Below, piece by piece: positions 927-24,900 of a stretch of 64,000 bases of DNA. Both the position numbers and the translations under genes were made by a program. The notes beneath the pieces were generated by a model. It worked only from the letters and a program-made list of their open reading frames with translations, ran no database searches and was not told the DNA's origin. Source of the stretch: an uncultured delta proteobacterium (GTDB lineage Bacteria > Myxococcota_A > UBA9160 > SMWR01); contig CAWHTE010000002.1 in assembly GCA_963832165.1 (NCBI GenBank), positions 96,001-160,000 on the forward strand, written 5' to 3'. The first letter of the stretch is position 1. The number at the start of each line of letters is the position of its first letter.

Positions 927-942
927 TGTGAAGTACTTCACA
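927..942. promoter_or_regulatory. CRP-family-type palindromic operator (site 1) between divergent asnB paralogs
   Basis: TGTGA-AGTACT-TCACA inside a perfect 20-bp palindrome GGTGTGAAGTACTTCACACC (925-944). A degenerate second site CGTGG-CCGAAT-TCACA lies at 901-916. Confidence 0.8.
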
Positions 943-3853: not shown

Positions 3854-3869
3854 TGTGAACTACTTCACA
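3854..3869. promoter_or_regulatory. CRP-family-type palindromic operator (site 2) upstream of the methyltransferase
   Basis: TGTGA-ACTACT-TCACA. The flank GGCCCAGGTGTGAA.TACTTCACACC is almost identical to site 1. Confidence 0.8.
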
Positions 3870-5422: not shown

Positions 5423-8400
5423 TCATTCGCGCTCGGCGCACAGCTCCGCAAAACGCGCGAGCGCCTCGTCGGCGGCGTCGACGGGGTAGAGCTCGTAGCG
5501 GCGGATGCGATCGCCTTCGAAGAGCTGAAAACCGATGAGGTAGTTCTCGAACGGCCCGCCGTCGGGGATGGTTCCGAATGCGCGGGAAAGAAACACCGCT
5601 CCGTGCTCGTTTCGCGTGAAGAACCGGAGCATCTCCACGCCGAGATCGGGCGCCATCTCGGCCCACGCGCGCACCGACTCCACGTACTCGTCGCGGTTCA
5701 CGACGCCGAGCGAGAGCGGGCGGTGATCGTGAATGACGGCATCGGGTAGGTAGGAGCTGCGCAGCGCCTCCCAGTCGTGCTCGTTGAAGGCGACGACACC
5801 GAGCGATCGCGCTCGAACCGGTCTTTCAGGCACGAAGCGCGACCACATCTCCGCAAACGCGGCGTGGCGGTCGTCGAGGTCGAACGTGATGATGGCGACC
5901 ACGTGGCCTTCGGAGTCGACCTCGACAACGTGCAGGTTTTCGATTTCGAACGCCCCGGCATCCCAGGTCCAGAGCATCTTCTCGAGCGTGAGCCGATCCC
6001 CCGCCGTCGCGAGGCGTGTGCGCGAGAGCGCAACGTCCGTTGCTGCCATCAACTTGCTGTTCTCGATGAACATCTCGCAATCGCCAGTAGTGAGAAACTG
6101 GCGGCGCCGATCTTCGAAGACCATCGGCGCGCACAACGCCCGTAGATCGTCCCAGGCGCGTGCCCGGTAGTACTCCCAAATGCGATCTACCGCACGCGTC
6201 GCCGCGTTGGGCGGAATCCGCAGCGGATCGGGGCGCAGCTCTTCGAACCGCGCGCGCGCGACGTCGAGGTCTTCGAGCTCGAAGTTCTCTTCCCGCACGA
6301 TGCGGCCGCCCCGGTAATGCCCGAGCGCGACGAAGATCGACTCGTACTCCCCGCCCTCGGCCAGCGTTCCGAAGCGGCGGCCGATCCCGAGGAACCCGTG
6401 TTCCTCGCGAGCGATCGTGTACAGCCCGCCGAAGATCGTGTCGGGCGATTGCTCGAATAGCGCGGCGAGCGATGCGATGTACTCGTCCTTCTCGATCCGC
6501 CCGAGGCCGGTCCGGCGGTGATCGTCGAACACATATTCGTCGGGCAGCGCAGCGCGGCACGCTGCGAGGTCGCGGTCGAGCCGAGCGCGGTACATCGCCA
6601 CGACTCCAGCAGGCAGCGATTCGAGGCGCGCTTCGCGTTCGAAGAGCTCGCGAGTCGCGGCGCGGCGGTCGTCGGGGTCGAAGACGACCAGCGCATCCAT
6701 GCGGCCCTCCGAATCGGCTTCGACGACCGAAAGCACTTCGGCTTCGACGCCCGGTACATCCGTGCCGTCGGTTCTGATCTGGAAGGTCTGGTGGATCAGT
6801 GCCAGACGATCTCCCGCCGTCGCGAGGACCGTGTTGAAGCGCCGGATCGCGGGTCCCGCGAAGCGCAGGCTCGCGACGAACATGTCGCGGTCGCCCTTCA
6901 GGAGCGCTGCGCGGCGGCGGTCGTCGAACTCGAGCGTCGGCGCGCACAGAGCCGCTACGGCGTCCCAGTCTCCGGCGAGGTGTGCTTCCTCCAGGCGAGG
7001 GCCGAGCCGGGTCGCCGCGTTGGGCGGAATCCGCAGCGGATCGGGCTGCAGCTCTGCGAACCGCGCGCGCGCATCGTCGAGCTGATCGAGGGCGTAGACG
7101 TCGCGGCGATGTTCCTGCCCTTCGGCGTCGACCTCGAACACGGCCACGCGCAGCTGCTCGAACGCGCCGCCCTCGTGCGTGCCGAACACGAGGCCGATCC
7201 TGAGCAAACCGCGCTCGCAGAGCCATACGTGTAGCGGACGGATACGCGTGTCGGCGGACAGCGCGTTCAGCGCCTTCATCGATTCGATGTAGGTCGCACG
7301 GTCGAGCGTGCCCCAGCCGAGCGGGCTGTGATCGTGGACGACGAAGTCCGGGGCGAGATACGCCCCCATGTCCGACTCCGGTGCTCCGCGAGCCTGCCCG
7401 AACATCTGCATCCAGCGCACGGGGGCCGGGAATGCGGCGGCCTCGCCCGCGAGGAAGCGTCGCCCCAGCTCGGCGTACGCGTCGTCGAGCTTGTCGGGGT
7501 CGAAGCGGACGAGCGCGATGCGGTTGCCGTGCTCGTCGACTTCCGCCACCGAGAGGGACTCGGTCTCGCTGGGCCCGATCGAGCCGTCGCTCCCTTCGAA
7601 GCGCATCCGGGTCAGCACCAGCCGGTCGCCGCGCGTGGCGAGCACCTCCTGGAAGACCCGAGATTCCTCCATCTCGAGCAGCGGATGAATGAACTGGTGG
7701 AACGTCTCGCGATCGAGCTCGAGCTGCATCAGCGCGCGCCGGTCGCTGTATCGGAGCTCGGGTGCATTGAGCGCGCAGATCGCCTGCCAGTCGCGAGCGG
7801 CCCACGCGCGACCGAATCGATCGACGGTCCGCGTGGCCGTGGTTTCGATCAGTCGTGCCGACGCGCGCGGCGCCGCGAGCTCCGCGAACCGCGCGCGCGC
7901 CGCGTCGAGCTGGTGGTCGAGGTCGTAGCAGTCGACGCTGGCGATGCGGCCGCGTTCGATTCCATAGATGAAGATGTGCGGGATCTCGAACGCTCCCTCG
8001 GCCTCGCTGCCGATCCACGTCGAGACCGCGAGCGCCACGCCCTCCGCGACGTCGATGTGGCTCACGCGAAGCGTCGCGTCGGGTCGCAGGTCCCACATCG
8101 AGCGGATCCGCGCGATGTAGTCATGCGCGGAGTCCATCGTCTCCCATCCCGAGAGCGGGCGGTGGTCGCGCGCGACGAGGTGCTCGGAGAAGACGGTCGT
8201 GAGCGCGTCCCAGGCGCGATCCCGGATCGCGCGCGCCAACCGCGACACCACGGCCTGGGTCTCGGGGTGTTCCGCCGCTTCGCCGGCCGCATAGCGCGCG
8301 TCGAGCTCGGCGTAGGCGGCGTCGAGAGCGGCGAGGTCGAAGCGAACCATCGCGGTCCGTTCGCCGCGCGCGTCTACCTCGACCACCGCGAGCGACTCGA

Positions 8401-11400
8401 TCTCGCTCGTGCCGATCGCTCCGTCGGCGCCCTCGAAGCGAACCCATGCCAGCGAGAGCCGATTGCCTCGCGTCGCAAGCGGCTCCCCCGAGAGTCGAGA
8501 CGAGCTCATCTCGAACAGCGGCCGCGTGAACTCGATCCACTGCTCGTGATCGAGCTCGAGCTGCACGAGCGCCCGGCGGTCGAAATAACGAGAGCCGGGC
8601 CGATGACCCGCTACGACAGCCTCCCAGTCGCGTGCGTTCCAGGCGCGTGCCAGACGGTCTTCGGCGCGCGTGGCCGCATTCTCGAACAGCCGTGGCGGCG
8701 CCGCGAGCTCCGCGAACCGCGCGCGCGCCGCGTCGATCTGCTCGGGGTCGTAAGCGTCCTCGCGCACGATGCGCCCGTCCGGTCCCGCCTCGTGCACGAG
8801 CACGTAGGGGATCTCGAAAGCGCCTTCGGATTCGCGGCCGAGCCAGCTCGTGACGATCAGGGCCGCCCGGTCGGCGAGCGCCATGTGACTGCGCCGCGTG
8901 AAGGCGTCGGGTCGCATCTCCACCAGTGCGCGCACACCCGCCACGTACTTCTCGAGCGAGCGGGCGCGACCCGTTCCCAGAAGTTGATGGTCGTGGCGCA
9001 CGAAATCAGGCGAGAAGAACGAGGCGAACTGATCCCAGTCCCGGCTCGCGATCGCGCGCCCCATGCCCGACGAACGGGCCCACATTGCGGGGTGTTCAGC
9101 GGCTTCGCCCTCTGCATAGCGGCGATCGAGCTCCGCGTACGCGGCGTCGAGCGCGTCGGCGTCGAAGCGGACGAGCGCGATGCGATCGCCGCGCTCGTCG
9201 ACTTCGGCCACGGTCAGAGACTCGGTCTCGCTGGGCCCGAGCGCGCCGTCGCTGCCCTCCCAGCGTAGCCGCGTCAGTGCGAGCCGATCGCCCCGCGTGG
9301 CCAGCCACTCTTGAGAGAGTCGAGACACCTGCATGTCGAACAGCGGGCGGATGAACGCGAGGTACTCGTCGCGATCGAGGTCGAGTCGCATGAGCGATCG
9401 GCGGTCTTCGTACCGGAGCCCGGGCGCGTGGCAGGCCACGACCGCCTCCCAGTCGCGGGCCACCCACGCGCGAAGGAAGCGATTCTGCGTCGCGGTGTTC
9501 TCGAAGAGGCACGCCGGCGCGCGCGGCGCCGCCAGCTCCGCGAACCGCGCGCGCGCCGCGTCGATCTGCTCGGGGTCGTAGGCGTCCCAGCGCCGGATGC
9601 GGCCGTCCGCTCCTATCTCGAGCACGACCACGGCGGGGAGCTCGAACGCGCCCTCGGATTCGCTGCCGACCCAGCGCACTGCAATGAGCACACCGCGGTC
9701 GGTGAGCGCGATGTGCTCGTAGCGCAGAGCCGCATCGGGCCGCAGCTCGCTCATCGCGCGGACGGAAGCGACAGCATTGATCGCCGAGCTCGAGCCCAGT
9801 CCGAGGATGCGATGGTCCTCGACGACTGCATCGGGCGAGAAGAACGCGCGATACCGTTCCCAATCGCGCGCCGCGAACGCGGCTCCGAGACCTGACGAGA
9901 CCGCCCACTCCGCCGGATGCTCGGCGGCCTCGCCCGCGGCATAGCGCGCATCGAGCTCGGCGTAGGCGGCGTCGAGCTGATCGGGATCGAAGCGGACCAA
10001 CGCGATGCGGTCACCGCGGTCGTCGACCTCCGCGACCCCTAGAGACTCGGTCTCGCTGGGGCCGATCGAGCCATCGCTGCCTTCGAAGCGCATCCGGGTC
10101 AGTACCAGCCGATCGCCGCGGGTGGCGAGCACTTCCTGCGAGATCCGAGAAACTTCCATCTCGAACAGCGGCCGCGTGAACTCGATCCACTGCTCGTGAT
10201 CGAGCTCGAGCTGCATCAGGGCGCGCCGGTCGCTATAGCGGAGCCCGGGCGCATTGTGCCCGGCGACCGCCTGCCAGTCGCGAGCGGCCCACGCGCGATC
10301 GAATCGATCGACCGCCCGCGTGGCCGCGGTCTCGAACAGCCGCGCTGGCGCCGGCGGCGCGCTCAACGCATCGAAGCGCGCGAGCGCCTCGACTTCGCGG
10401 TCGTCGTCGAAGACCTCGAAGCGCGACATCAATCCGTCGCCGTTGGCGGCCACGAGCGTGAGGAATCCCCGCTCGAAGGGGCCCCCGCTCTCGCGTCCGA
10501 TTCCGGAGAACCGACCCCGAGTCAGGAAGGCGTCGGGACGGAGGCCGAGAACGTCGTCGATGCCGAGCGCCAGCTCGTCGGCGAGCGGGGACCACGAGCG
10601 GAGGTTCTCCATCACGGCGTCCGCTCCGCGCGCGGAAGACGTTCCCAGGATCCGGTGATCGATGAACTGGATGTCCGGTGCGAGCGTTGCGGGGTAGGTC
10701 TCGGGGTCGTACGTACCGAACGCGCGGATTCGCGCCGCGAGCGCGGCGGCGCGAGCGCGCTCGGGACCTTCGGGCGCAAGCTCCGCATAGCGCTCGTACA
10801 GGCGCGCGATCGCATCGCCGAGCCGGTCGGCGGCGAAGACCTCGACGCGCCGCGCCCGCCCGCCCGATTCCGCTTCGATGACCTGTAGCATCTCCGATTC
10901 GTAGGGGCCGACGTCGAATCGCCTGCCGACGAACCCGCTCCCCCGGACGGAGCGCCGGCTCAGCGCGAGCGAATCGCCGAGCGTGGCCAGCGGCTCCAGG
11001 TGGAACACCGGACCCTCTGCGGAGAGGAGGTGTTGGCTCGACGCGATCAGTCCCTGCAAGCCGAACGTCGCTCCCGTCGTATGATCGACCGTCTCCCACG
11101 TCTCGGTGACCGAGGCGATGATCGCGTCGAGGTCGCGCGCGGCGTAGGCCGAGGTCATGCGCGCCGCGTGGTCGGTCGCGGCGTTGGGCCGTATGCGGCG
11201 CGCGGGGCGCGTACGCTCGGCGGTCAGCGCGTCGAAGCGCGCGAGCGCGTCGGCTTCGCGGTCGGCGTCGAATATCTCGAAGACACGTCTCCGGCCTTCG
11301 GCGTCGTAGACTTGCAGGAGAAGGAACGCGATCTCGTAGTCACCGCTGCTGGCCCGGTCGCGCCCGCGTTCGCGCGCGCGCACGAGCACTGCGTTGCTGC

Positions 11401-14400
11401 GCAAGTCGAGGATGTCGTCGAAGAGGGTGACCGCGTCGTCGACCGTCTCGTACCAAAGCTGCAACCGCCGCCGGACCTCGTCGATTCCGTTCGAGGACGG
11501 CACACTGATCACGGCGCGGTGATCGCGGAACGCGACGTCCGGCGCGTAGGTATCCAGGTTCTCCAGATGCGGGCCGAGCGTGGCCGCGATCGAGCGCGCG
11601 ATCCCCCCGGCGCGCATGCGCGCGGGGCCTTCGGGCTGCAGCTCCGCATAGCGCTCGTACAGGCGCGCGATCCCATCGCCGAGCCGGTCGCTCGCGAAGT
11701 TGTCGGTGTGCCGGCGCCGGCCGCTCGCGTCCACCTCCACGAGCAGCACGGTCTCGATCTCATAGGCGCCGATGTCGAGGTTCCTCGCGACGATTCCGCT
11801 CGCGCCGCACCACATCCGGCACAGTGCGAGCGAATCGCCGAGCGTGGCGAGCGGCACACCGCGGTAGGTGCCGCCCTCAGCTCGCGCGAGCGACAGCCAG
11901 GTGCCCGTGGATTGCTCACGCGCGTAGTTCGTTCCCGTCGGGTGATCGACGCACTCGCCCGAGTCCGCGAGGTGGGCCGCGATCGCCGCGGCGTCGCGCG
12001 CCCGCATCGCGGCCTCGAAGCGCGCGGCGTCGGCAGTGGCGGCGTTCGGGCGCACGCGGCGGGCCGGACGCGCCGGCGGCGAGGTCAGCGCATCGAGGCG
12101 CGCGAGCGCGTCCGCGCTTTGCTCGGGTTCCCAATCTTCCCAGCGATTCAGCAGACCGTCGGGTCCGAACGTCCAGAGCTGGCAGAGCTGGCGTTCGAAA
12201 TCGCCGCCGCTCGCGCCCAGGGTGCCGACATTCGTGATGCGCACGATGAGCGCATCGGGGCGCAGCGCCACGATGTCCTCCCAGCGCCACTCGAAATCGT
12301 CGACCAGCTCGAAGAAGGCTCGCACCGCGCGCACCAGCTCATCGGCCCCGCGCACGGTGCCCACCCCGACGGTGCGGTGGTCGATGCGCTCGATCGCCGG
12401 CGCGAGCGGCCAGCGATCGGGTCTCTCGCGCACCATCACCGCGACCGAGCGCGCGATCGCCGCGGCGCGGGTGCGCTCGGGGGCCTCGGTGCATCGTTCC
12501 GCATAGCGCTCGTACAGCCGAACGATCGCGTCGCCCAGGTGGTCCGCAGGGAAGACCTCGAGCCGGTGCCGTCGGTGTTGGGAGTCGACCTCGCTCAACT
12601 GGTAGTTCTTGTGCTGGAATGCACCGACGTCGAGCGTCTTGCCGGCCGCGCCGCTCCCGGAAACCGAGTGCCAGCACAGCGCGAGCGAGTCGCCGAGCGT
12701 TGCCAGAGGCTCGTACCGGCGCGCCAGATTCTGGACGCGGAGCTGCTTGCGGTAGAAGGCCAGCGATTCCGACCGGCCATGAGTGGCGCCGGTCCAATGC
12801 TCGATCACCTCGTCGTCCTCGGCGAGGAGCTCGGACAATGCGTCTGCGTCTCCTGCGGCAATCGCGGCATCCAGGCGGGCCTCATACGCGGTCGCTGCGT
12901 TCGGCCGCACGCGGCGCGCGGGCGGCGCAGCGGTGAGCGCCTCGAAGCGCGCGAGCGCCTCGGCGCGGCGGTCCACATCGAAGATGTCGAAGTGGGTCAC
13001 CAGGCCATCGGCCCCGTAGACGAGCAGCGAGATGAATTTCATCTCGAACGCGCCGCCGCCCTCGCGCGCGACTCCGGAGAGCGTCGCGCGGAATGCGCAC
13101 CCGGTGGCGCGCAGGTCGAGCAGCTCGTCGGCGTGGACCGCCAGCTCGTCGCCGAGCGCGGTCCACGAGCGGGCCTGGGAGAGCATGTCTGCCGATCCGC
13201 GCGCAGCGAACAGGCCGAGGATCCGGTGGTCGGTCATCTCGACACCCGGAGCCATGCTCGAGGCATAGTGCTCGGGATCGAACGAACCCCAGGTCTGATG
13301 GCGCGCGATCGTCGCAGCGCGCGTTCGTTCCGGCCCTTCGGGCAGGAGCTCGGCATGGCGCTCGTAGATGCGCCCGATCGCGTTGCCGAGGTGGTCGCTC
13401 GCGAAGACCTCGGCGCGCGCAAAGCGGCCGTCCGGATCGACTTCGCAGAGCACGAAATTTTCGAGTGCGCTCGGACCGACTTCACCCTGATCCCAGTCGA
13501 GGCCAGCCGTGGAAATCGATCGCTGAACAAGCGCGAGCGAATCACCGAGCGTCGCGAGCGGCTCCGTGCGAGGGGAGAAATCCTGCGCGCGCCAGAGGAG
13601 TTGCGCGCTGGACATCACGCCGGAGCGATCCCACTCCAGGCCGGTCGGATGATGGACGGCTACGAAGCTCTCGGCGTGCAGCGCGAGGGTCGCCGCCTCG
13701 TCGCGAGCCTCGATTGCGGCCGTGAGACGCGCGACCACCTCGGTGGCCGCGTTGGCGCGCCAGCGGCGCGCCACGGGCGTGGCCGCGGCGAGCGCGTCGA
13801 AGCGCGCGAGCGCCGCCGCCTCGTCTTCCAGCTCGAAGATCTCGAGACGGGTCTGGAGGCCGTCGGTGCCGAAAACCATCAGGGAGAGGCAGGGCGCCTC
13901 GAAGATGCCGCCGCCGTCGCGCGCAATGCCCGCGAACATCCCGTTCACGACCAGCATGTCGGGCTGCGCGGCGAAGATCTCGGTGATCCGGTTCGTCATG
14001 TCGTAGGCGACGGCGAACCACGAGCGGAAGATCTCCAGCGCGGCATCGCGCCCGCGCGCCGAGACCGTGGCCAGGCGCCGGTGATCGACCAGCTCGAACG
14101 ACGGCGCGTACGCTGCGGCATAGCGATCGGGATCCCACCCTCCCATCGCTGCCACGGTGTACGCGATCGCCGCGGCGCGATCCCGCTCCACGCCCTCGGG
14201 CAAGAGCTCCGCATAGCGCTCGTACAGGCTCGAGAGCGCGTCGCCGAGGTGGTCGATCGCGAACGCCTCGGATCGGCAGAAGAGCCCGCTCGCATTGGTC
14301 TCGTAGGTGACGATCTCCTCGCCGCCAAACGCGCCGACATCGAACTCACCGCGCGAGAGCCCCGCCGCCGAGAGCGAGACGCGGCACAGGGCGAGACGCT

Positions 14401-17400
14401 CGCCGAGCGTCGCGAGCAGCTCGTTGCGATAGACGAGGTCGCGGTTCTGCATCACCGAACGCATCGTGGCCAGCTGCGCCGCCCGGTCGTAGGTGTGGCC
14501 GGTGGGGTGGTCGACGTTGTGCGAGTCTTCGGCGAGCTGGGCCGCGAGGGTGTCGATGTCGCGATTCATGATCGCGGCCGCCTGACGCGCGGCTTGAACG
14601 CTCGCGGTGTTCGCGCGTACGCGGCGGGTGGGTCGCGGTGCCACTCCCGTGAGCGCGTCGAAGCGCGCGAGCGCGTCGGCCTCGTCGTCGACGTCGAACC
14701 ACTCGATGCGCGCCAGGCGGCCGTCGGCGTCGTACAGCCAGAGATGGAGATGCTGGCGATCGTAGGGCCCGCCGCTCGCGCGGTTGGTGCCCGCGGCCGT
14801 GATGCGGGAGAGCAGCGCATTGGGCGTCACGACGAGGACGTCGTTGGCGCTCAGGTGGACGTCCGAGACGGTGTCGTACAAGACGCGGATGCCTCGGCGC
14901 ACCTCATCGGCGTTGCGCGCAGAAGGGAGCCCGATCAGACGCCGGTGATCGACGAACTCGACACCGGCCGCAAGAACCTGCTCGAAGCGATCGGGATCGA
15001 GGGTCGGTGCGAACCACGCAGCCACACCGCGCGCGGTGGCGGTGGCGCGCACTCGCTCGGGGCCTTCGGGGAGCAGTTCCGCATAGCGCTCGTACAAGCG
15101 AGTAATCGCGTCGCCGAGCCGATCGGCCTTGAAGAACTCGGCGCGCAACTGTCTCCCGCGCGCATCGACCTCGATGACGACCTGCTCCTCCATCTCGTAA
15201 GGACCGATGCTCAGCCGCCCTGGTATGCCGCTGGCGGAGATCGATGGCCGTCCCAACGCGAGCGAATCGCCGAGCGTCGCAAGTGGCTCGTTTCGATACG
15301 AGAGATTCTCGGCGCGCATGAGGCCGCGGATCGTCTTGACGCCTTCCGCGCGACCCCACTCCGTGCCCGTGGGATGGTGGATCGCATGGAACCCGTCGGA
15401 GTGCAGCTCGGAAACGGCGGCTTCGTCGCGCGCGCCGACGGCGGCTTCCAGGCGGGCGAAGGCAGCCGTGGCCGCGTTCTCTCGCACGCGGCGGCGCACT
15501 GCGCGCGCGGATGCGACGCGCATGACCGGTGCCGGCGCCACCGGCTCCACCGCGTGCGCGCCTTCTCGCCGCGCTCGCTCGACCAGCAGCGTGGCGCCCT
15601 TCGCCTCCCAGAGCGAGGTAGCGCGCGCCTCCTCGGCCGCGGCCTCGGCGCCTCGGCCGGACGCGCGCAGCGCCGCCGCGAGCGCGAGCCGCGCGTCGGC
15701 GTGGAACAGCAGCGCGTCGGTCGCCGACGCGATCTCGACTGCCGCGCGCGCAAGCTCGACGGCTCTCTCCGCCTCACCGCGCCGCGCGAGCGCCTCCGCG
15801 CGCACGCCGCGCCACGCGATCGCGGACTGCAGATCGTCGCCCGCGAGCGCCTCGCTCTCGTGAGAGATGGCCTCGGCTTCGGCGGCGCGATCCTGCGCGA
15901 GCAGCGCGCGGCCGAGCTGCGCGGCGCACTGCGCCGCGTCGCTGCCGAGCCCTAGCTCGCGCATGCCGTCGTAGGCGGTGCGCAGACAGCGCTCGGCCGC
16001 GACGGGGTCTCCCTCGATCAGCTCGACCTGACCCGCGAACTGATCCGCTTGGAGCAGGCGATGCGTGATGCCGAGCTCTTCCACCATGCGCCGCGACGAC
16101 GCGATCATGCGCCGCGCGGCTTCGCTGCGACCGCGCAGCGCCTCGAGCACGCCCTGCGAGCGCAGCGCCACGGCCTCCACAGCGGGCGAGCCCGACGTGA
16201 TGCGCAGCACGCGCACGACGTCGAGGCAGCGACCGCTCGCGCGTGTCACAGGGGAGGGGCCCCACAGCGCCGCGAGCGGCGCGCCCGAGAGCACGGCGTT
16301 CGCGCGGCGGCGGTCCCCCACGCGGCGCGCCGCTGCGAGCGCGCGGTCGAGCGCGGCCTCGCACGCGCCGACCTTTCCAAGCCGCGCGAGCGCGATCGCG
16401 TGCACGAAGTGCGCCTTCGCCTCGCCCGCGGCGTCGCCGGCCGCGGTGAGCTGCTCGGCGGCCGCGGCGACCGCATCGGCGGTGCCGCGCAGCGACTTCG
16501 GGTCGGTGAGCGCCGCGCGCTCGCCCGCGAAGCAGGTATGCCACGCGGCGAGGCGCGGCGAGTCGGCCGTGAAGCGGCCGAGCTCGTCGATCGCGCGCCC
16601 CGCGGTGCCGACCTCGCCCGCCGCGAGCAGCGCCTCGCACCAATCCAGTGCCAGGTCGGCGCGCGCGGGGTCGGCGGGCTCGAGCCGCTCGAGCGCGCGG
16701 CCGAGCAGGCTCGCCGCGACCGGAACGTCGTCGCGCGCGAGCGCGCGCCGGCCCGCGCCCGCGAGGTAGCGCGATGCGCGCTCGCCTAGCGCGCGCCCCT
16801 GCTCGTCGATCGTCCCGAGCTCGCGCAGGTGCTGGTGCGCCTGCTCGAGGTGCCAGCCGATCGTCTCGTCGTGCGGGGCTTCGTCGCCGACCCGCTTCAC
16901 CACCCAGTCCGCGAAGCGCGCGTGCAATTCGGCGCGTGTATTGCGAAGCAGGCGTCGGTACGCGGCGTCGCGGATCAGCGCGTGGTGGAAGCGCAGCGCG
17001 GGCTCGCCGAGGAACCAGCCCGTGTCGGACTCGACCAGCTCGCTGCGGCGCAGCGCCTCGAGCTGGCGGTCGAGGTCGGGCGCCTCGCGCGGCAGGAGCT
17101 CCTTCACGGCCGCGCGCGAGAACTGCCGGCCTACCACGGCCGCGCGCTCGAGCACGGTGCGCTCCTCGGGTCGCAGCTTCTCGATGCGCGCGGCGAGCAG
17201 CGCCTGGATCGTGGGCGGCATCTCGAGGCTCGCGAGCTCGACGCCCAGCGTCCAGTGATCGCCCTCGCGCACGAGCGCGCCGTCGTGCACGAGCATGCGC
17301 ACGAGCTCGCCCACGAACAGCGGGTTGCCCTCGCTCGCCGCGAGCACGCGGCCCGCGACCGCGGCGGGCAGCTCTTCGGCGCCGATCGCATTCGCGGCCA

Positions 17401-18784
17401 GGCGCGTCGCAGCGCCCGCGTCGAGGCCCGCGAGCGTCACCACCTCGGACACGAGAGGACCCGGTGTCGCGAGCGAGGAGCGCTCCTCGCGCAGCTCGGG
17501 GCGTGCCGCGACGAGCACGAGCAGCGGCGAGTCCGTGCTCCACTGCACGAGGTGCTCCGTGAGGTCGAGCAGCAGTGGCTCGGCCCAGTGCAGGTCGTCG
17601 AGCGCGAGGACGACGGGCGCGGCCGCCGCGAACGCGCCGAGGAATCGCCGCACGACGAAGAACGTCTCCTCGGGCGGCGCGGGCGTGCCCGCGAGCAGCG
17701 CGCCGATGCCCCCCGCGATCCGGTCGCGCTCGGCCTCTTCGCGCGGCAGCACGTCTTCGATCGCCGCGCGTGTGGCCTCGGCGCTCGCAGTGTCCTCGAT
17801 CCGCAAGAGCGCGCGCAGCCCGCGCGCGAGCGGCGAGAACGTGCCGCCGCCCGACGGATCGCAGCGCGCGCTGATCACGGTGGCGCCATCCTCGAGCCGG
17901 CGTGCCACCTCGCCCAGCACTCGCGACTTGCCGAGCCCGGGCGAGCCCAGGATCACCGCGAGCTTGGCGCGCTGCTCGGAAACCGCGGCGTCGTAGACCG
18001 CGCGCAGCCGCCGCAGCTCGCCCTCGCGGCCCACGAACGGCGTGGCCGACGCGCCCGCGGGCCGGTCGAGCGACACGACGCGATAGGCGGCGACCGCCTC
18101 GCTGCGGCCCTTGAGTGCGAGCGCACCGATCGGCGCGAGCGTGATGAGCTCCGAAACGAGGCGACGCGTGGATTCCCCGATCAAGACGTCGCCGTCGTGT
18201 GCGGCCGCTTGCAGGTGCGCGGCGACGTTGAGCGGGTCGCCGATGCCGGCCGCGTAGTCGTCGGAGACGACCACCTCACCCGTGTTCACGGCGACACGCA
18301 GGCCGACGCGGTCAGTGAGCTGGTTCTGCTCGCGGAACTCGCGGAACGCCTGCTGCACCGCGACCGCAGCACGCACGGCGCGGATCGCGTCGTCTTCGGC
18401 CACGTGCGGCACGCCGAACGCGCACATCACGCCGTCGCCGAGCAGCTGCACGACGGTGCCGCCGTGCGCCTCGATGGGCGTGCGCACGGCGCGGTGGTAG
18501 CGGTCCATCACGCGACTAACGGCCTCGGCGTCGAGGCGCTCCTGCAACGCGGTCGAGCCGATCAGATCCGCGAACACGATCGTGACGACCTTTCGCGAAA
18601 CGGTGTCAGCGGTAGCGGGGGCCGCAGCCGCGCCCGCGAGCGACGCGCCGCACGCGCCGCAGAACTTCATGCCGGGCGCGGACTCGGTGCCGCACACAGG
18701 GCAGCGCGGCGCGAGCGGCTGCCCGCAGCCGCCGCAGAAGCGGTGGCCGGGCGGGTTCGCCGTACCGCAGCTCGCGCAGTCCAA
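5423..18784 (-). CDS. Giant double-zinc-ribbon / class III nucleotide cyclase / STAND ATPase / TPR-like / SnoaL(NTF2)-like repeat protein, paralog A (~4450 aa)
   Basis: CASCG..N....RFCGGCG...CPVCG....KFCGACG; VTIVFADLIGST...GDGVMCAFG...RVAVNTGEV...GDPLNVAA; Walker A GSPGLGKSR; Walker B LDDLHWA; GNPLF; then 12 ~280-aa units. Start placed at TTG 18784 (AAGGAGG SD, aligns with the paralog's MDCASC) rather than ATG 18811. NTF2 assignment is by eye. Confidence 0.88.
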   Translation of the reverse strand: MDCASCGTANPPGHRFCGGCGQPLAPRCPVCGTESAPGMKFCGACGASLAGAAAAPATADTVSRKVVTIVFADLIGSTALQERLDAEAVSRVMDRYHRAVRTPIEAHGGTVVQLLGDGVMCAFGVPHVAEDDAIRAVRAAVAVQQAFREFREQNQLTDRVGLRVAVNTGEVVVSDDYAAGIGDPLNVAAHLQAAAHDGDVLIGESTRRLVSELITLAPIGALALKGRSEAVAAYRVVSLDRPAGASATPFVGREGELRRLRAVYDAAVSEQRAKLAVILGSPGLGKSRVLGEVARRLEDGATVISARCDPSGGGTFSPLARGLRALLRIEDTASAEATRAAIEDVLPREEAERDRIAGGIGALLAGTPAPPEETFFVVRRFLGAFAAAAPVVLALDDLHWAEPLLLDLTEHLVQWSTDSPLLVLVAARPELREERSSLATPGPLVSEVVTLAGLDAGAATRLAANAIGAEELPAAVAGRVLAASEGNPLFVGELVRMLVHDGALVREGDHWTLGVELASLEMPPTIQALLAARIEKLRPEERTVLERAAVVGRQFSRAAVKELLPREAPDLDRQLEALRRSELVESDTGWFLGEPALRFHHALIRDAAYRRLLRNTRAELHARFADWVVKRVGDEAPHDETIGWHLEQAHQHLRELGTIDEQGRALGERASRYLAGAGRRALARDDVPVAASLLGRALERLEPADPARADLALDWCEALLAAGEVGTAGRAIDELGRFTADSPRLAAWHTCFAGERAALTDPKSLRGTADAVAAAAEQLTAAGDAAGEAKAHFVHAIALARLGKVGACEAALDRALAAARRVGDRRRANAVLSGAPLAALWGPSPVTRASGRCLDVVRVLRITSGSPAVEAVALRSQGVLEALRGRSEAARRMIASSRRMVEELGITHRLLQADQFAGQVELIEGDPVAAERCLRTAYDGMRELGLGSDAAQCAAQLGRALLAQDRAAEAEAISHESEALAGDDLQSAIAWRGVRAEALARRGEAERAVELARAAVEIASATDALLFHADARLALAAALRASGRGAEAAAEEARATSLWEAKGATLLVERARREGAHAVEPVAPAPVMRVASARAVRRRVRENAATAAFARLEAAVGARDEAAVSELHSDGFHAIHHPTGTEWGRAEGVKTIRGLMRAENLSYRNEPLATLGDSLALGRPSISASGIPGRLSIGPYEMEEQVVIEVDARGRQLRAEFFKADRLGDAITRLYERYAELLPEGPERVRATATARGVAAWFAPTLDPDRFEQVLAAGVEFVDHRRLIGLPSARNADEVRRGIRVLYDTVSDVHLSANDVLVVTPNALLSRITAAGTNRASGGPYDRQHLHLWLYDADGRLARIEWFDVDDEADALARFDALTGVAPRPTRRVRANTASVQAARQAAAIMNRDIDTLAAQLAEDSHNVDHPTGHTYDRAAQLATMRSVMQNRDLVYRNELLATLGERLALCRVSLSAAGLSRGEFDVGAFGGEEIVTYETNASGLFCRSEAFAIDHLGDALSSLYERYAELLPEGVERDRAAAIAYTVAAMGGWDPDRYAAAYAPSFELVDHRRLATVSARGRDAALEIFRSWFAVAYDMTNRITEIFAAQPDMLVVNGMFAGIARDGGGIFEAPCLSLMVFGTDGLQTRLEIFELEDEAAALARFDALAAATPVARRWRANAATEVVARLTAAIEARDEAATLALHAESFVAVHHPTGLEWDRSGVMSSAQLLWRAQDFSPRTEPLATLGDSLALVQRSISTAGLDWDQGEVGPSALENFVLCEVDPDGRFARAEVFASDHLGNAIGRIYERHAELLPEGPERTRAATIARHQTWGSFDPEHYASSMAPGVEMTDHRILGLFAARGSADMLSQARSWTALGDELAVHADELLDLRATGCAFRATLSGVAREGGGAFEMKFISLLVYGADGLVTHFDIFDVDRRAEALARFEALTAAPPARRVRPNAATAYEARLDAAIAAGDADALSELLAEDDEVIEHWTGATHGRSESLAFYRKQLRVQNLARRYEPLATLGDSLALCWHSVSGSGAAGKTLDVGAFQHKNYQLSEVDSQHRRHRLEVFPADHLGDAIVRLYERYAERCTEAPERTRAAAIARSVAVMVRERPDRWPLAPAIERIDHRTVGVGTVRGADELVRAVRAFFELVDDFEWRWEDIVALRPDALIVRITNVGTLGASGGDFERQLCQLWTFGPDGLLNRWEDWEPEQSADALARLDALTSPPARPARRVRPNAATADAARFEAAMRARDAAAIAAHLADSGECVDHPTGTNYAREQSTGTWLSLARAEGGTYRGVPLATLGDSLALCRMWCGASGIVARNLDIGAYEIETVLLVEVDASGRRRHTDNFASDRLGDGIARLYERYAELQPEGPARMRAGGIARSIAATLGPHLENLDTYAPDVAFRDHRAVISVPSSNGIDEVRRRLQLWYETVDDAVTLFDDILDLRSNAVLVRARERGRDRASSGDYEIAFLLLQVYDAEGRRRVFEIFDADREADALARFDALTAERTRPARRIRPNAATDHAARMTSAYAARDLDAIIASVTETWETVDHTTGATFGLQGLIASSQHLLSAEGPVFHLEPLATLGDSLALSRRSVRGSGFVGRRFDVGPYESEMLQVIEAESGGRARRVEVFAADRLGDAIARLYERYAELAPEGPERARAAALAARIRAFGTYDPETYPATLAPDIQFIDHRILGTSSARGADAVMENLRSWSPLADELALGIDDVLGLRPDAFLTRGRFSGIGRESGGPFERGFLTLVAANGDGLMSRFEVFDDDREVEALARFDALSAPPAPARLFETAATRAVDRFDRAWAARDWQAVAGHNAPGLRYSDRRALMQLELDHEQWIEFTRPLFEMEVSRISQEVLATRGDRLVLTRMRFEGSDGSIGPSETESLGVAEVDDRGDRIALVRFDPDQLDAAYAELDARYAAGEAAEHPAEWAVSSGLGAAFAARDWERYRAFFSPDAVVEDHRILGLGSSSAINAVASVRAMSELRPDAALRYEHIALTDRGVLIAVRWVGSESEGAFELPAVVVLEIGADGRIRRWDAYDPEQIDAARARFAELAAPRAPACLFENTATQNRFLRAWVARDWEAVVACHAPGLRYEDRRSLMRLDLDRDEYLAFIRPLFDMQVSRLSQEWLATRGDRLALTRLRWEGSDGALGPSETESLTVAEVDERGDRIALVRFDADALDAAYAELDRRYAEGEAAEHPAMWARSSGMGRAIASRDWDQFASFFSPDFVRHDHQLLGTGRARSLEKYVAGVRALVEMRPDAFTRRSHMALADRAALIVTSWLGRESEGAFEIPYVLVHEAGPDGRIVREDAYDPEQIDAARARFAELAAPPRLFENAATRAEDRLARAWNARDWEAVVAGHRPGSRYFDRRALVQLELDHEQWIEFTRPLFEMSSSRLSGEPLATRGNRLSLAWVRFEGADGAIGTSEIESLAVVEVDARGERTAMVRFDLAALDAAYAELDARYAAGEAAEHPETQAVVSRLARAIRDRAWDALTTVFSEHLVARDHRPLSGWETMDSAHDYIARIRSMWDLRPDATLRVSHIDVAEGVALAVSTWIGSEAEGAFEIPHIFIYGIERGRIASVDCYDLDHQLDAARARFAELAAPRASARLIETTATRTVDRFGRAWAARDWQAICALNAPELRYSDRRALMQLELDRETFHQFIHPLLEMEESRVFQEVLATRGDRLVLTRMRFEGSDGSIGPSETESLSVAEVDEHGNRIALVRFDPDKLDDAYAELGRRFLAGEAAAFPAPVRWMQMFGQARGAPESDMGAYLAPDFVVHDHSPLGWGTLDRATYIESMKALNALSADTRIRPLHVWLCERGLLRIGLVFGTHEGGAFEQLRVAVFEVDAEGQEHRRDVYALDQLDDARARFAELQPDPLRIPPNAATRLGPRLEEAHLAGDWDAVAALCAPTLEFDDRRRAALLKGDRDMFVASLRFAGPAIRRFNTVLATAGDRLALIHQTFQIRTDGTDVPGVEAEVLSVVEADSEGRMDALVVFDPDDRRAATRELFEREARLESLPAGVVAMYRARLDRDLAACRAALPDEYVFDDHRRTGLGRIEKDEYIASLAALFEQSPDTIFGGLYTIAREEHGFLGIGRRFGTLAEGGEYESIFVALGHYRGGRIVREENFELEDLDVARARFEELRPDPLRIPPNAATRAVDRIWEYYRARAWDDLRALCAPMVFEDRRRQFLTTGDCEMFIENSKLMAATDVALSRTRLATAGDRLTLEKMLWTWDAGAFEIENLHVVEVDSEGHVVAIITFDLDDRHAAFAEMWSRFVPERPVRARSLGVVAFNEHDWEALRSSYLPDAVIHDHRPLSLGVVNRDEYVESVRAWAEMAPDLGVEMLRFFTRNEHGAVFLSRAFGTIPDGGPFENYLIGFQLFEGDRIRRYELYPVDAADEALARFAELCAERE

Positions 18785-18809
18785 CGCGGGCCCTCCTTGG
18801 GGCGGGGCC

Positions 18810-18853
18810 ATTCTAATGGGTACGCCAGTTCCTGGGGTGTGAAGGGGTTCACA
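18810..18853 (-). promoter_or_regulatory. Promoter of paralog A: -10 TAGAAT plus CRP-family-type site 3
   Basis: Minus-strand TAGAAT at 18815-18810; TGTGA-AGGGGT-TCACA at 18838-18853. Confidence 0.8.
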
Positions 18854-18921: not shown

Positions 18922-21900
18922 TCATTCGCGCTTCGCGCGCAGCTCCTCGAAGCGCGCGCGCGCGGCGGGGAGCTGTTCGAGGTCGTACTGGTCGAAGCGC
19001 AGCACGATGCCGCGCGCGTCGTGCTCGGAGACGGTGATCCAGGGCGTCTCGAACGCGCCGCCGTCGCGCGTGCCGACCCAGGCGCCGATCCAGATCAGTC
19101 CGCGCTGCGACATCTCGGCGTGGTCGAGGCGCAGCTGCGTATCCGGGGCGAGGTCGACGAGCGAGTGGAGCGTCCGTACGTAGTCCGCGGTGCTGCGCAC
19201 CGTCTCCCAGCCGAGCAGGCGGTGGTCTTCGACGACGAGGTCGGGCGCCATGCGCGCCGCGAGCGCATCCCAGTCGCGGAGCGCGAACGCGTCGAGGAAC
19301 GCGTGCATCGTGCCGGCGATGTGCGGGAACGCGGCGGCCTCGCCGGTCGCATAGCGCGCGTCGAGCTCGGCGGTGGGCGAGCGCGGCGTCGCGAGCTCCG
19401 CAAACCGCGCGCGCGCGGCGGAGAGCTGTTCGGGGTCATAGATGTCGTCGTGACCGATGGTCCCGTCCGGCCCGAGCGCGAATACGTTCGTGGAGTGGAC
19501 CTCGAAGGGGTCTTCCAGTTCGTCGGCGACCCAGTGGGTCACGACGAGTGCCGCGCGGTCAGCGAGTTCAACGTGATCGGCGCGCGTGGAGACATCGGGC
19601 CGCAGCTTGATCAGCGTCCGGACGGAGTCGACGATGAGCTTGGAACCGTGCGTGGTTCCGCTTCCCTCGTCGCGGTGATCCTCGCGGATGTAGTCCGGAG
19701 AGAACCGGGAGGGAAGCGCGCCCCAGTTCCGCTCCGAGATCGCGCTCTGCATGCTCGAGATGGCCGCCCACATCTCGGGGTGCTCGGCGGCCTCACCCAC
19801 GGCATAGCGGCGATCGAGCTCGGCATAGGCAGCGTCGAGCGCGTTGGGGTCGAATCGCACGTTCGCCACGCGCTGGCCGTGCGCGTCCACCTCGCACACG
19901 ATCAGCGAATCGATCTCGCTCGGCCCGATCGAGGCGCTTCCGATCGATCCGCCGGCGACTTCGACGAGCATCCGGGAGAGCGCCAGCCGCTCGCCGCGCG
20001 TGGCCAGGATCTCGGACGAGATCCGCGACGTGGCCATGTCGAAGAGCGGCCGCGCGAACTCGAACCAATGCTCGAGACCGATGTCGAGCTGCATCAGGCT
20101 GCGCTGGTCGATGTATCGGAATCCGGGCGCGTAGAGGGCGGTGACGGCCTTCCAGTCGCGCGCCGACCAGGCGAGCGCGAAGCGCTCGATCGACCGCGTC
20201 GCGGCGCTCTCGACCGCTCGTGCCGGGACGGCCGGCGCTTCCACCTCGGCGAATCGCGCGCGCGCGGCGGCGATCTGCTCGAGGCTGTAGTGGTGTGCGC
20301 GGTTGACCTGGCCGTTGCGGCTGAACCCGAACACGGTGACGACGGGAATCTCGAACGCTCCGGCAGCCTGGCTGCCGATCCAGCTGGCCACGAACAACGC
20401 CGCGCGATCGCCGAGCACGACGTGATCCACGCGCAGCGTCACGTCGGGCGCGACGTCGGAGAGCGAGCGCACCGCGGCCACGTATTCCGCGGGTGAATTT
20501 GCACTGCCCCAGCCGAACAGGCGGTGGTCCTCGGCGAAGAGATCCGGGGAGAAGAGCGCCATGATCCGGCCCCACTCACCGGCCTCGAGGACGCCTCGCA
20601 GACTCGCGAGCGCCGTCCACGTCGCGGGATGCTCTGTGGCCTCGCCTGCCCCATAGCGCGCATCGAGCTCGGCGTAGGCCTCGTCGCGCGCGTCCAGATC
20701 GAAGCGAGCACCGGCCACGGCCTTGCCGGCGGGGTTCACCTGCCAGACCGCGAGCGAGGAGATCTCGCTCGGGCCAATCGAGCCATCGGCCACCTCGGTG
20801 CACATCCGGGCCAGCGCGAGCCGATCGCCGCGCGTGGCGATGATTTCCGCCACGACGCGCGACGACTTCATCTCGAACAGGGGGCGCTGGAACTCGAGCT
20901 GCTCTTCGAGGTCGAACTCCAGCTGCACGATCGAGCGGCGGTCGCTCATCCGCATTTCGGGCGCGTAGACCGCGCGCACGGCCTCCCAATCGCGCGCGGC
21001 CCAGGCCTGCACGAACTGGTCGAGCGAGCGCGTCGCGGCGTTCTCGACCAGCCGCGGCGGTGCCACCGGAGCCACGAGCTCGTCCAGGCGCGCGAGTGCG
21101 GCGTCGCGCTCGTCGGCGTCATAGTTCTCCCATTGGGCAAGGCGCCCGTTCGCGTCGAAGACGTAGAGCGCGACGGGATGGCTGCGGAACGGGACGCCTC
21201 TCTGTTCGCCCTCGAGAGTTCTGTGCACGAGCAGCGCGTCGGGGCGCAGCGCGAGGATCTCGTCGGTCGGCGTGGCGGTGAAGGTGATCGACTCTGCCAC
21301 ATCGCGGACCCCGCGGCGGACCGTCACCAAGCCGCGCGCGGAACCCCAGCCGAGCAGACGGTGATCCCGGTATTGCACGTCGAGCGCGAGCAGGTTGGCG
21401 ATCGCATCGGGATCGAGTGGGGCGAGCATCACCGGGATCGCGCGCGCGATCGCAGTGGCGCGTCTGCGCTCAGCGCCCTCCGGCTGCTCGCTCGCATAGC
21501 GCTCGTACAGCTTCGCGATCGCATCGCTGAGGCGATCGACTGCGAAGACCTCGGCGTACGCGATCCGCCCCTGCTCGTCGGCCTCGAGCACGTCGAGCTC
21601 GTCGATCAGATAGGATCCGACGTCGAGCGTTGCGCCCGCGAAGCCGGTCGCCGAGATGGTCCGACGGAACAGGCCGAGCGAGTCGCCCAGGATCGCGAGC
21701 GGCTCGTGCAGGGACTGGGGCTCGCGCGCCTTCATCAGGGAGCGGAAGCTCGCGATCCACCCCTCGCGGTCGAAGGTCGTCCCCGTCTTGTGGTCGAGGA
21801 TCACGGCGCGTTCGGCGACCAGCTCGACCAGGGCGTCGGTGTTGCGCAGCGCGATCGCTTCGTCGACACGCGCGGTGTGTGCAGTCGCCGCATTGGCGGG

Positions 21901-24900
21901 GAGCGGGCGCGACGGTGTCGGTGCCTCTGTGAGCTCCTCGAAGCGCGCTAGCGCCTCGTCGCGGCGGTCGACGTCGAGCCACTCGACGAAGGTCGCGAGA
22001 CCGTGGGCGCCGAACACCCGCAGCGACAGGTATTGGGCCTCGTAGGCGCCCCCACTCGCGCGGTCCGTTCCGCTCTCGTGCCATTCGATCAGGAGCCTCT
22101 CGGGCCGCACCGCGACGACATCAACGACGTCGAAGGTCAGGTCCGCGACGGTATCGAACCAGATGCCGATTCCGCGGTGTACCGCGTCTGCGCCGCGCGT
22201 CGTTCCGAGCGACACCACGCTGCGCCGGTCGCGGAAGATGACGTCGCGAGCGAAGATCGTGGCGAAGCGTTCGGCGTCCGCAGGTCCGTGCCACACCGCG
22301 AGCGTGCGCGCGGTAGCCGCTGCGCGCGTGCGCTCGGGGCCTTCGGGCAGCAGCTCGACATGGCGCTCGTACAGCCGCACGAGCGCGTCGCCGAGCCGGT
22401 CGGACGCGAAGATCTCGCAGTGCGTCAACCGACCCGCGGCGTCGACGTCGAAGATGGTGATGTTCTCGAGCTCGTAGGGTCCGACGTCGACGGTCTCCCC
22501 CGTGAATCCGCTCGCAGCGGCGCTCGTGCGACACAGCGCGAGCGAGTCGCCGAGCGTGGCGATCGGCTCGGTGCGGTGGACCGGATCGCGCGCGCGCAGG
22601 AGCGAGCGCCAGCTGTCCAGCATGCCCTGCCGGCCGAACTCCGTGCCGGTCGAGCGATCGACGAACTCGCAGGGATCGGCGAGGGTTTCGTCGAGCCCCT
22701 GGAGGTCGCGCGCCGCGATCGCGGTATCGAGCCGCGCCGCGTAGGCGCTCGCGGTGTTCGGCCGCACGCTGCGTCTCGGCGGCGTCGGCTCGGCAACCAG
22801 CGCGTCGAAACGCGCGAGCGCGTCGTCCGCGTGCTCGGCGTCGAACTGCTCGACGCGAGACACGAGGCCCGCGGCATCGAAGATCCAGATGAAGATGAAC
22901 CTGCGCTCGAACGTGCTCCCGCTCGCGCGCAGGGTGCCCCTGCTCGTGGATCGACACAGAAGGGCGTTGGACCGCACATCGATCACGTCGTCCATCCGGA
23001 AGACGACGCCGTCAGCGATCTCAGCGAGCTTTCGCGCCCAGTCGAGAAATGCCGCGGCACCCCGGATCGAGCCGATTCCGACCAGGCTCCGGTGGTCGAC
23101 CCACTCGACATCCGGCGCGAAGAGCGCTGCGCTTCGCGCGAGATCCATCGGCCCCGTGATGACCGTGATCGCGCGCGCAATCGCCAGGCATCTCGCGCGT
23201 CCGGGGCCGGGCGGCTCCAGCTCGGCGTAGCGCGCGTACAGGCGTGCGATCGCGTCGCCGAGGCGATCTTCCGAGAAACTCTCCGCTCGCGAGCGGCGGC
23301 CCTCGCGGTCGGCCTCGATCAGCACGAGGTGGTGGTTCTCGTAGGCGCCGACGTCGAAGCCCCCGCTCTCGAGAGCGCTCGCGGACGCGGACACGTGCAG
23401 GAGTGCGAGCGAGCCGCCGAGCGTGGCCACCGGCTCGTGTGCAGTCTTCGGATCGCGCGCCTTCATGTGGATCTGGAACGAGGTGAGCGCGCCCTGGCGA
23501 TCGTACGTGATGCCGGTCGGGTGATGGATATGGAGCGTATCGTCCGTGAACACCTGCTCGGCCGCAGACAGGTCGCGTGCTGCCATGGCAGCGTCGTAGC
23601 GCGCGCCGTTGGCAGTAGCGGCGTTGGGCCGCACGCGCCGCGCCCGGCGGCGCGGCGCGGCGGTGAGCTCGTCGAAGCGCGCGAGCGCCTCCTGCTCCTG
23701 GGTCAACTCGAAGAGCTCGAGGCGCGTCTGCAAGCCGTCGCTGCCGAAGACCATCAGGGAGATGGAGGGCGATTCGAAGCGACCGCCTCCGTCGCGCGCG
23801 GTCCCGGCAAACATCGTGCGCACGAGCAGCGCACTCGGACCCAGCCCGAGGATTTCATCGATGTGGTTCTCGATGTCGTCGGCGACCGCGAACCAGGAGC
23901 GGAACATCTCCAGCACGGCCTCGGGGCCGCGCGCGAAGAAGCTGCCGAGCTTGCGGCGGTCCACCATCTCGATCGCGGGCGAGTAGGCCGCCGTATAGCG
24001 CTCGAGGTCGTAGCCGCCCACCACGACCGCCCCAACCGAGCGCGCGGTCGAGGCAGCGCGCGCGCGCTCGGGGCCTTCGGGCAGGATCTCGGCATAGCGT
24101 TCGTATAGGCGCGTGACGGCGGCGCCGAGGCGGTCCGGCGCGAATCGCTCGGCGTAGCGCTGAAGGCCTTCCGCGTTGCTCTCGCTCAGCGTGAACATCT
24201 CGTTTGCGAAATCGCCGACATCGATCTGGGAGCTCTTGACTCCGCTCGCGGAGGTCGCGATCCGAGCCAGTGCGAGCGAGTCGCCCAGCGTTGCGAGCGG
24301 CTCGACCCGGTAGGACAGGTCGCGGCCCGCGAGCACGGCGTGCAGGCTGGCGAGGATCTCGCGCCGGCCGTAGGTGATGCCGACCTCGTGATCGAGCACC
24401 TCCGTGTCGTCGCTGTAGAGCGCAGCGATCTCCTCTTCGTCTCGTGCGGCGACTGCGCGCTCCACGCGGGCCAGGTGCGTGGTCGCCCCATTGGGTCGCA
24501 CGCGGCGCGCAGGGCGGGCCGACGGCGAGGTCGACGCGTCGAAGGCCGCGAGCGCCGCGTCGATCTGATCCGGCTCGAACATCTCGAAGCGCGCGAGCCG
24601 CCCGTCGGGGCCCGCGACCGAGAGCGAGAGGTAGGGGCGCTCATAGGCGCCGCCGCTCGCGCGCAGGGTGCCGAAATTGGTCTGGCGGACCAGGCACGCA
24701 TCCGGTCGCAGCGCGAGGATGTCGTCGAAGCGGTTCGCGGCGTCCGGGGCGAGCTCGAGCAGCGATCGAACCGCGTTCAGGAAGAGCTCCGGTCCGCGCC
24801 CTTGTCCGGCCCCGACGGTGCGGTGATCGAAGCTCTCGATGTCCGGCGCCAGGCTCGCGGCATACCGCTCGGTATCGACCCGCCCCACGTTGTTCGCCAC

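Follow-up and report, generated by a model that had tools for sequence, protein, structure and literature searches.

STAND proteins (signal-transduction ATPases that have numerous domains) have been described with sensors made of solenoid or propeller repeats, for instance tetratricopeptide repeats (TPRs) or WD40, that grip one ligand or protein surface; leucine-rich repeats are another such sensor. MalT, for example, has one sugar-binding sensor and a DNA-binding output. MalT is a STAND switch with a TPR-type arm and ligand-induced oligomerisation (PMC10427625), and the sensors reported for Avs-type receptors are TPR, WD40 or FGE-sulfatase domains (PMC13581612, section 5). Here we analyse 64,000 nucleotides of DNA from an uncultured delta proteobacterium (assembly GCA_963832165.1, contig CAWHTE010000002.1, positions 96,001 to 160,000; hereafter the window), in which a gene termed paralog A encodes, in this order, a double zinc ribbon, a class III nucleotidyl cyclase, a STAND NTPase, a winged helix, a TPR arm and twelve units of two NTF2-like domains each. 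Paralog A and its relatives represent a variant of the cyclase-STAND signalling proteins, with a type of sensor for which we found no earlier description.

The order cyclase, AAA_16, winged helix, TPR is that of the cyclase-STAND-TPR proteins (SWACOS-type; mycobacterial Rv0386/Rv2488c; TOMM kinase/cyclase TIGR03903), and in architecture paralog A fits the definition of the SWACOS type. TIGR03903 matches residues 64–667 of paralog A (E = 3e-58), the score of 198 being far below the cut-off of 706. The tail-less cyclase-STAND-TPR versions are 25–30% identical in the NTPase region, belong to another clade and in no case carry an NTF2 array. Paralog A shares the STAND switch and TPR-type arm with MalT; unlike MalT, it carries a cyclase at its N terminus and, after the TPR, 24 pocket domains that are separate from one another. 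With Avs and other bacterial NLR-like (nucleotide-binding leucine-rich-repeat) receptors, it has in common the effector-STAND-sensor layout, a patchy spread and a sensor common to different NTPase clades; unlike in Avs, the effector is a cyclase, with no toxic effector or defence-system match. SnoaL domains also act as regulatory appendages in the ECF41/ECF56 sigma factors (sigma J, SigG1; 7qh5 is among our fold matches), there as a single domain without STAND switch or array. Ligand binding has been proposed for the sigma J domain (PMC5766207), and two further papers mention SWACOS or NTF2 in other systems (PMC7159879, PMC13236601). No paper on a STAND protein with an NTF2/SnoaL array was found in a literature search that covered few subscription papers; databases already label the array proteins by their domains.

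The array itself is real. A half-domain profile reads ABAB strictly twelve times along paralog A, giving the 24 domains in 12 two-domain units that a sequence-only reading of this DNA had approximately counted. The units, of 257–277 residues each, fill residues 1111–4457 (window 15481 down to 5441), and all twelve begin with an N/E-AAT-like motif and end with A[LR]ARF.[AE]L, as that reading had also stated. Its three subtypes (units 1–6, 7–10 and 11–12) are recovered both in protein identity, which is 38–50%, 46–68% and 40% within these groups and 23–38% between them, and in a quick tree built from the 40 units of all four paralogs in the genome (Shimodaira–Hasegawa-like approximate likelihood ratio support of 100, 99 and 93), the third subtype being the least firm because of its value of 93. 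Since the closest units of paralog A are 68% identical in protein, and at most 84% in DNA over 300 nucleotides, they are too divergent for a collapsed repeat; with the intact open reading frame (ORF) and 219 array-matching proteins elsewhere, an assembly, collapsed-repeat or antisense artefact is ruled out.

The NTF2/SnoaL fold, formerly called by eye, is upheld by profile, model and fold comparison alike. Pfam assigns SnoaL_2 to paralog A at E = 2e-75, with 12 stretches passing individually, and DUF4440 at 3e-35. In the AlphaFold2 model of unit 1 (predicted local distance difference test, pLDDT, 94.7; predicted template-modelling score, pTM, 0.91), residues 1–120 and 142–263 form two cones, each with three helices lying on a curved sheet of six strands and each followed by a further helix. 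Both halves match solved NTF2-like structures with Z of about 13 and a root mean square deviation (rmsd) of 2.3–3.0 Å over 112–120 residues, and the top fold matches include NTF2-fold designed steroid and vitamin binders.

How the two cones are arranged departs from expectation. The best whole-unit Foldseek matches to the model are Lsd19 and MonBI-BII (E = 5e-14), epoxide hydrolases that likewise have two NTF2 domains per chain (PDB 3rga, 4rzm, 9kw6). They lack, unlike the array units, capping helices and an array, are 15% identical, and their catalytic residues are not conserved here; the model superposes on them with an rmsd of 11.8–13.5 Å and a template-modelling (TM) score of 0.38–0.39. 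At 12–13 Å and such TM scores, a canonical Lsd19-type A-B pseudo-dimer, which had been anticipated for each unit, is ruled out on the predicted model, where the dimer face lies under the capping helices. The reason was seen in covariation over 1708 units (effective number 1498). The conserved sheet face of each domain pairs with that domain's own following helix (70–130, 74–129 and 104–132; 226–267 and 260–273), and the variable sheet face covaries with helices 1 and 3, that is, on the pocket side. Thus, each domain's own C-terminal capping helix is predicted to cover its convex sheet face, through which NTF2 proteins commonly dimerise. The A-B contact within a unit is small, involving the first capping helix and strand 3 of B, and some arrays consist entirely of B domains or almost entirely of A domains (P0246, P0199, P0234); the basic repeat is therefore one cone plus its cap. 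In a three-unit model (pLDDT 93.5, pTM 0.54), the linkers have a pLDDT of 69–76. As modelled, the two domains of a unit are a rigid pair, with little predicted order between units. A rigid superhelix across several units is unsupported by the pTM of 0.54 and the weak inter-unit covariation, which do not by themselves prove flexibility.

The array belongs to a large family. Searching with it retrieved 4147 representatives at E = 0.001 or better, and among 1441 candidates scored it matched 219 proteins of 2454–7809 amino acids from other assemblies, the named members being from Binatia, Myxococcota, Eisenbacteria and Mycobacterium. A scan for loci with a narrow alignment covered subtype I only. 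At least one domain follows the head in 293 of the 303 proteins fetched that share this TPR head, which makes the array all but obligatory in this head clade; the other ten end within or soon after the TPR, or leave the frame. Complete-looking tails hold 1–39 domains (median 12), and 199 of the 293 alternate strictly. Of 137 mixed arrays, 113 have their subtype blocks in the order I>II>III, as against 4.7 expected on shuffling. Turnover of units by gain, loss and replacement far outpaces change in the head. Among 18 pairs with heads at least 90% identical, the unit count agrees in one pair, and for 83 of 190 units there is a counterpart at no less than 70%; across the family, the nearest neighbour of a unit lies in another protein in 1522 of 1706 cases. 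The source genome has four paralogs, A to D, with 24, 19, 16 and 22 domains, respectively. The head of paralog B is 86% identical to that of A, and yet their arrays are not collinear; paralog C (3384 residues, 8 units) lies just outside the window. Presence is patchy (11 of 61 related genomes, one of six congeners and 6 of 201 genomes across the phylum). No reverse transcriptase (RVT_1) match indicative of a diversity-generating retroelement was found in the 89%-complete genome, and an ESM Atlas search returned unnamed SnoaL clusters without function, mostly from Actinomycetota.

Two further observations concern relatives without an in-frame tail. In some, a frameshift or split right behind the TPR deprives the head of an in-frame array (L019:6672–12277; P0294, P0364), either by sequencing error or by natural truncation. 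Separately, tail-less zinc-ribbon cyclase-STAND-TPR genes of the other clade often lie less than 10 kb from array genes (loci L003, L010, L015, L021, L022, L028, L034, L046 and L051).

That the array acts as a sensor module, as proposed earlier, gains support from its travelling together with the TPR arm, as seen in the mycobacterial forms, in which a Trans_reg_C/BTAD activator stands in front of the module. Identity to these forms is 16–44% over cyclase, NTPase and winged helix and 42–74% at residues 700–1060, reaching 62–74% in the TPR at residues 810–910. Moreover, in a quick tree of 44 rows, with long branches flagged, their NTPase domains fall into a clade of their own. The jump in identity at about residue 700, with the separate NTPase clade, indicates that two STAND heads received TPR and array jointly, as a single graft. 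The TPR arm of paralog A had no match among solved PDB structures by sequence search. The suggestion that the array stands in place of TPRs fails, since TPRs are present and are the best-conserved part. When TPR arm and unit 1 were folded as separate chains, the contact score was 0.57 (best of three controls, 0.00), the runs agreeing in at least 98% of contacts at a partner pLDDT of at least 86; in the benchmark of the method, scores of 0.60 or less comprised 18 of 157 solved complexes and both of the mismatches that passed (2 of 215). The model is weak evidence that the TPR arm may contact unit 1.

The head, read earlier as a STAND/TPR part, is confirmed by its AAA_16 match and by all the STAND motifs, which are present in paralog A, along with the weaker TPR-like arm; the layout is that of a STAND protein, with N-terminal effector, NTPase, winged helix and C-terminal repeats. 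Across 144 aligned heads, the Walker A Lys, the Walker B Asp-Asp and the sensor Arg are invariant, and the GxP motif reads GNP in 136 and is gapped in the other eight. Aligned to CyaB (3r5g), the cyclase of paralog A retains the metal ligands Asp82/Asp126 and, as transition-state residue, Asn195. The catalytic Arg, present in 136 of the 144 heads including paralogs C and D, is replaced by His199 in paralog A and by His also in B (5 of 144 heads). Base-specifying residues fall into the classes Lys/Asp (49 of 144, the canonical pair together with Asn/Arg), Gln/Glu (36), Gln/Ala (28) and Gln/Gln (6), and because these differ, the members may make different cyclic nucleotides. On their own, paralogs A and B probably have little activity and may depend on C or D, which bear the Arg, considering that class III cyclase dimers share their active sites.

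For these observations, we propose that paralog A is a ligand-gated, cytoplasmic, one-component STAND signalling protein with a shuffled library of pockets, a reading to which we give a probability of roughly 45%. By analogy with MalT, from which ligands, docking, activation and output are deduced, the sensor would be the TPR arm with its chain of monomeric NTF2 pockets. The off state would be an ADP-bound head with a unit docked on the conserved surface of the TPR. A lipophilic small molecule of any of many kinds (resembling sterols, aromatics or lipids) entering a pocket could then release the arm, allowing ATP exchange and oligomerisation and bringing the cyclases together as dimers; in the mycobacterial forms the output would be dimerisation of the SARP/BTAD activator instead. 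The array would thus be an OR gate over many ligands. A bolder version, which we regard as doubtful, holds that this is a bacterial intracellular 'nose': a new class of STAND sensor in which as many as about 40 monomerised NTF2 pockets make up a library that recombines, every pocket being tuned to a small molecule of its own. Docked on a dedicated TPR arm, portable between cyclase and activator heads and reshuffled unit by unit, such a library would endow a single protein with a combinatorial repertoire for chemical surveillance.

The distribution of variability speaks for this reading. With strand positions split by parity into inward and outward, and faces assigned from covariation and an alignment to 3ec9, entropy is 3.32 bits inward and 2.36 bits outward (38 and 36 columns, p = 4e-7), and the pocket face holds 19 of the 25 most variable columns, though it accounts for 18% of columns. 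Variability thus falls on the pocket linings, as the sequence-only reading required, and is not confined to the outer surface. Similarly, random pairs of the same subtype share 16–23% of pocket residues, 24–32% of exposed-helix residues and 48–66% of outer-face residues, in position sets hand-picked from the 3ec9 alignment, conservation and covariation. The linings are 64–69% aliphatic or aromatic, with about a third of residues polar or charged, and the side-chain volume there averages 146–148 Å3, a figure that has no control set.

Having raised the possibility of ligand gating, we would note that several observations weigh against it. Specific small-molecule binding by open pockets is putative. 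The ratio of nonsynonymous to synonymous substitution (dN/dS) is 0.48–0.77 in pockets and 0.43–0.58 in exposed helices, so that positive selection on pockets gave no signal (dN/dS below 1 in four identity bins of 80, 45, 16 and 2 pairs, with synonymous sites near saturation in the lower bins). Entropy sorting hinted at a signature of specificity positions, which failed in a matched test: among highly variable columns of 278 close pairs, the conservation ratio was 0.489 in pockets and 0.485 elsewhere (p = 0.56). As pocket columns are no better kept, there is no signature of lineage-specific ligand specificity, and relaxed packing fits equally. The outermost pockets are about 3,000 residues from the head, a long route for a signal, and neighbouring units covary weakly. 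In the head, the loss of the catalytic Arg is joined by non-canonical base-specifying residues, Gln122 for Lys and Ala188 for Asp/Thr. Around the genes there is no conserved partner, the commonest Pfam-named flanking clusters (SDR, TPR) occurring in 4 of 74 loci, and the promoter boxes of this genome, described below, were not found with fewer than two mismatches upstream of array genes in other genomes.

Among the alternatives, the first is that the array is a pattern-recognition receptor for proteins, whose pockets or surfaces catch exposed residues or termini belonging to proteins of a phage, predator or host, with the cyclic nucleotide as alarm. NTF2 itself takes a Ran residue. The patchy presence, the four paralogs and the fast unit turnover would suit such a receptor, as would the non-canonical base-specifying residues of most members. 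Of 81 flanking ORFs scanned from 181 candidates, 12 are of toxin-antitoxin type (two pairs lie just downstream of A) and about 14 are redox or lipid enzymes, both counts being without a background control; the neighbourhood speaks both for and against this reading. Also on the negative side are the missing signal of positive selection, the promoter boxes, which point to ordinary CRP control, and the mycobacterial forms with their transcription-activator head. A search of the cyclase with PADLOC gave only weak PycC matches (best 6e-11), and no effector gene binding cyclic nucleotides was found among the window neighbours scanned, including those beside A or B, which a Pycsar system would call for. 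A sensor common to two STAND clades is reported for Avs7 in a 2026 survey of defence STANDs, which again favours protein sensing, and yet the terms SnoaL and NTF2 are absent from its main text and seven supplement files, though its tables may list members without domain names (PMC13581612). Taken together, we consider this reading rather unlikely.

Second, the array might be a structural or buffering tail, that is, a spacer, an autoinhibitory chain or a non-specific hydrophobic sink, whose linings drift and need only fill space. Packing with the capping helices inside the unit would explain the conserved residues, pocket changes track other variable sites, the number of domains is free (1 to 39), and the block order suggests position-dependent structure. 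Buried faces are, however, normally more conserved than surfaces, and the pocket faces here are less so, with the share of polar or charged lining residues mentioned above; four copies of genes of 10–13 kb would also be costly for a spacer. This explanation we judge unlikely.

Third, a multi-enzyme chain, made up of isomerases, cyclases or epoxide hydrolases that the STAND head regulates or that report to it, is very improbable. In its favour, the closest solved folds are such enzymes, and an Asp that aligns with Asp38 of ketosteroid isomerase is kept by 94% of the B domains and 73% of the A domains (12/12 B and 9/12 A halves in paralog A; unit position 35, by a weak match of E 0.05–0.2). Against it, this Asp is the sole conserved polar lining residue; position 11, in the place of the oxyanion-hole residue Tyr14, is variable and aliphatic (Leu 24%, Phe 19%, Val 10%); the Asp-His-Arg loop shows covariation with last-strand residues of the scaffold; and no biosynthetic cluster is conserved around the genes.

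Returning to the ligand-gated reading, its output may be linked to a CRP-type regulon. The perfect palindrome TGTGA-N6-TCACA occurs four times in the window (0.37 expected), and CRP-type boxes number 13 genome-wide (0.2 expected), seven of them perfect TGTGAA-N4-TTCACA. Of these seven, four are at array genes or their operon and one is before a CYP51-ferredoxin operon; one CRP-type box precedes the 5' piece of paralog D. A spacing of 21–22 nucleotides from box to TAGAAT, as for genes A and B (Table 1), is that of class II CRP promoters, and a sigma-70 scan found no full promoter upstream of either gene. The genome encodes a CRP with the usual recognition helix (C3:225629–226306). A longer box pattern is found in 27 of 61 relatives, with zero control matches, and the 19 box loci that were read include crp-type genes (2), CHASE2 cyclases (2), P450s (3) and polysaccharide export (2). 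Judging from these promoter boxes, the array genes are probably part of a CRP regulon fed by the cyclic nucleotide, which would be a positive feedback. As the box was not found before array genes of other genomes, the CRP evidence speaks for this genome only. At G000:C7:115287–117900 (L086/L089) the genes behind the palindrome encode a CYP51 (E = 2e-120 against solved bacterial CYP51), a ferredoxin and a membrane protein without a name, which presumably, by eye, resembles cyclopropyl sterol isomerases; the possible sterol link rests on this one operon.

Table 1. Features of the array genes and CRP-type boxes in the window (aa, amino acids of paralog A)
Feature	Position in window	Strand	Details
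Paralog A gene	5423..18811	minus	4462 codons from ATG; single ORF, no internal stop
Double zinc ribbon, aa 12–55	18647..18778	minus	Pfam DZR 3e-09
Class III nucleotidyl cyclase, aa 74–238	18098..18592	minus	Pfam and alignment
STAND NTPase (AAA_16), aa 258–432	17516..18040	minus	Walker A and B intact; Pfam AAA_16 2e-22
TPR-like arm, aa 700–1085	15557..16714	minus	weak by Pfam (0.033)
Units 1–6, subtype I, 12 NTF2 domains	10364..15481	minus	singly 14651–15481, 13790–14614, 12935–13756, 12086–12904, 11225–12049, 10364–11188
Units 7–10, subtype II, 8 NTF2 domains	7049..10333	minus	singly 9533–10333, 8705–9502, 7877–8683, 7049–7846
Units 11–12, subtype III, 4 NTF2 domains	5441..7024	minus	singly 6236–7024, 5441–6211
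Paralog B gene	18922..30465	minus	3847 residues; 9 units and one B half (19 domains)
CRP-type palindrome, perfect TGTGA-N6-TCACA	18838..18853		22 nt before -10-like TAGAAT (18810–18815) of gene A
CRP-type palindrome	30519..30534		21 nt before TAGAAT of gene B
CRP-type palindrome	927..942		between two divergent asparagine-synthase-like genes
CRP-type palindrome	3854..3869		upstream of methyltransferase gene (2986–3786, minus)

Paralog A probably starts at the TTG at 18784, giving 4453 residues, because the ATG at 18811 overlaps the -10-like TAGAAT and the database gene call has 4453 residues. Elsewhere in the locus, the divergent asparagine-synthase-like amidotransferase genes (window 53–2948; L001:18965–19999), between paralogs A and C, share one palindrome, and the leftward one ends about 120 nucleotides before paralog C. 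Two small toxin-antitoxin-type pairs, DUF4160/DUF2442 and HicA/HicB, occupy window 3972–5269, between gene A and the methyltransferase gene, downstream of A. A different, intergenic palindromic repeat occurs at window 2956, 3930, 4484, 5349 and 27143, with about 44 genome copies of its 18-nucleotide core; it has also inserted in frame into paralogs B and C, where it adds a short peptide in front of unit 1 in both genes and, in C, between units 6 and 7 as well. Further along are type IV pilus-type ATPases (51351–53992), and a TPR-kinase gene with a second TPR gene (58870–63355). At G000:C7:623730–624171 (L087), the CRP-type box and the first 101 codons of paralog D are followed by a jump to other genes, 97% identical to those downstream on G000:C10 (L002), which starts where the C7 piece ends. 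This pattern reflects either an assembly bubble or a strain without the 12 kb body of the paralog D gene.

If the ligand-gated reading is true, these proteins would follow a different sensing logic from that of the described STAND sensors, with many inputs feeding one switch and a repertoire that changes by gain and loss of units. The family would also offer thousands of natural monomeric NTF2 pockets, in a fold on which steroid and vitamin binders have already been designed, and its cultured Mycobacterium members (e.g. WP_068293530.1) make it testable.

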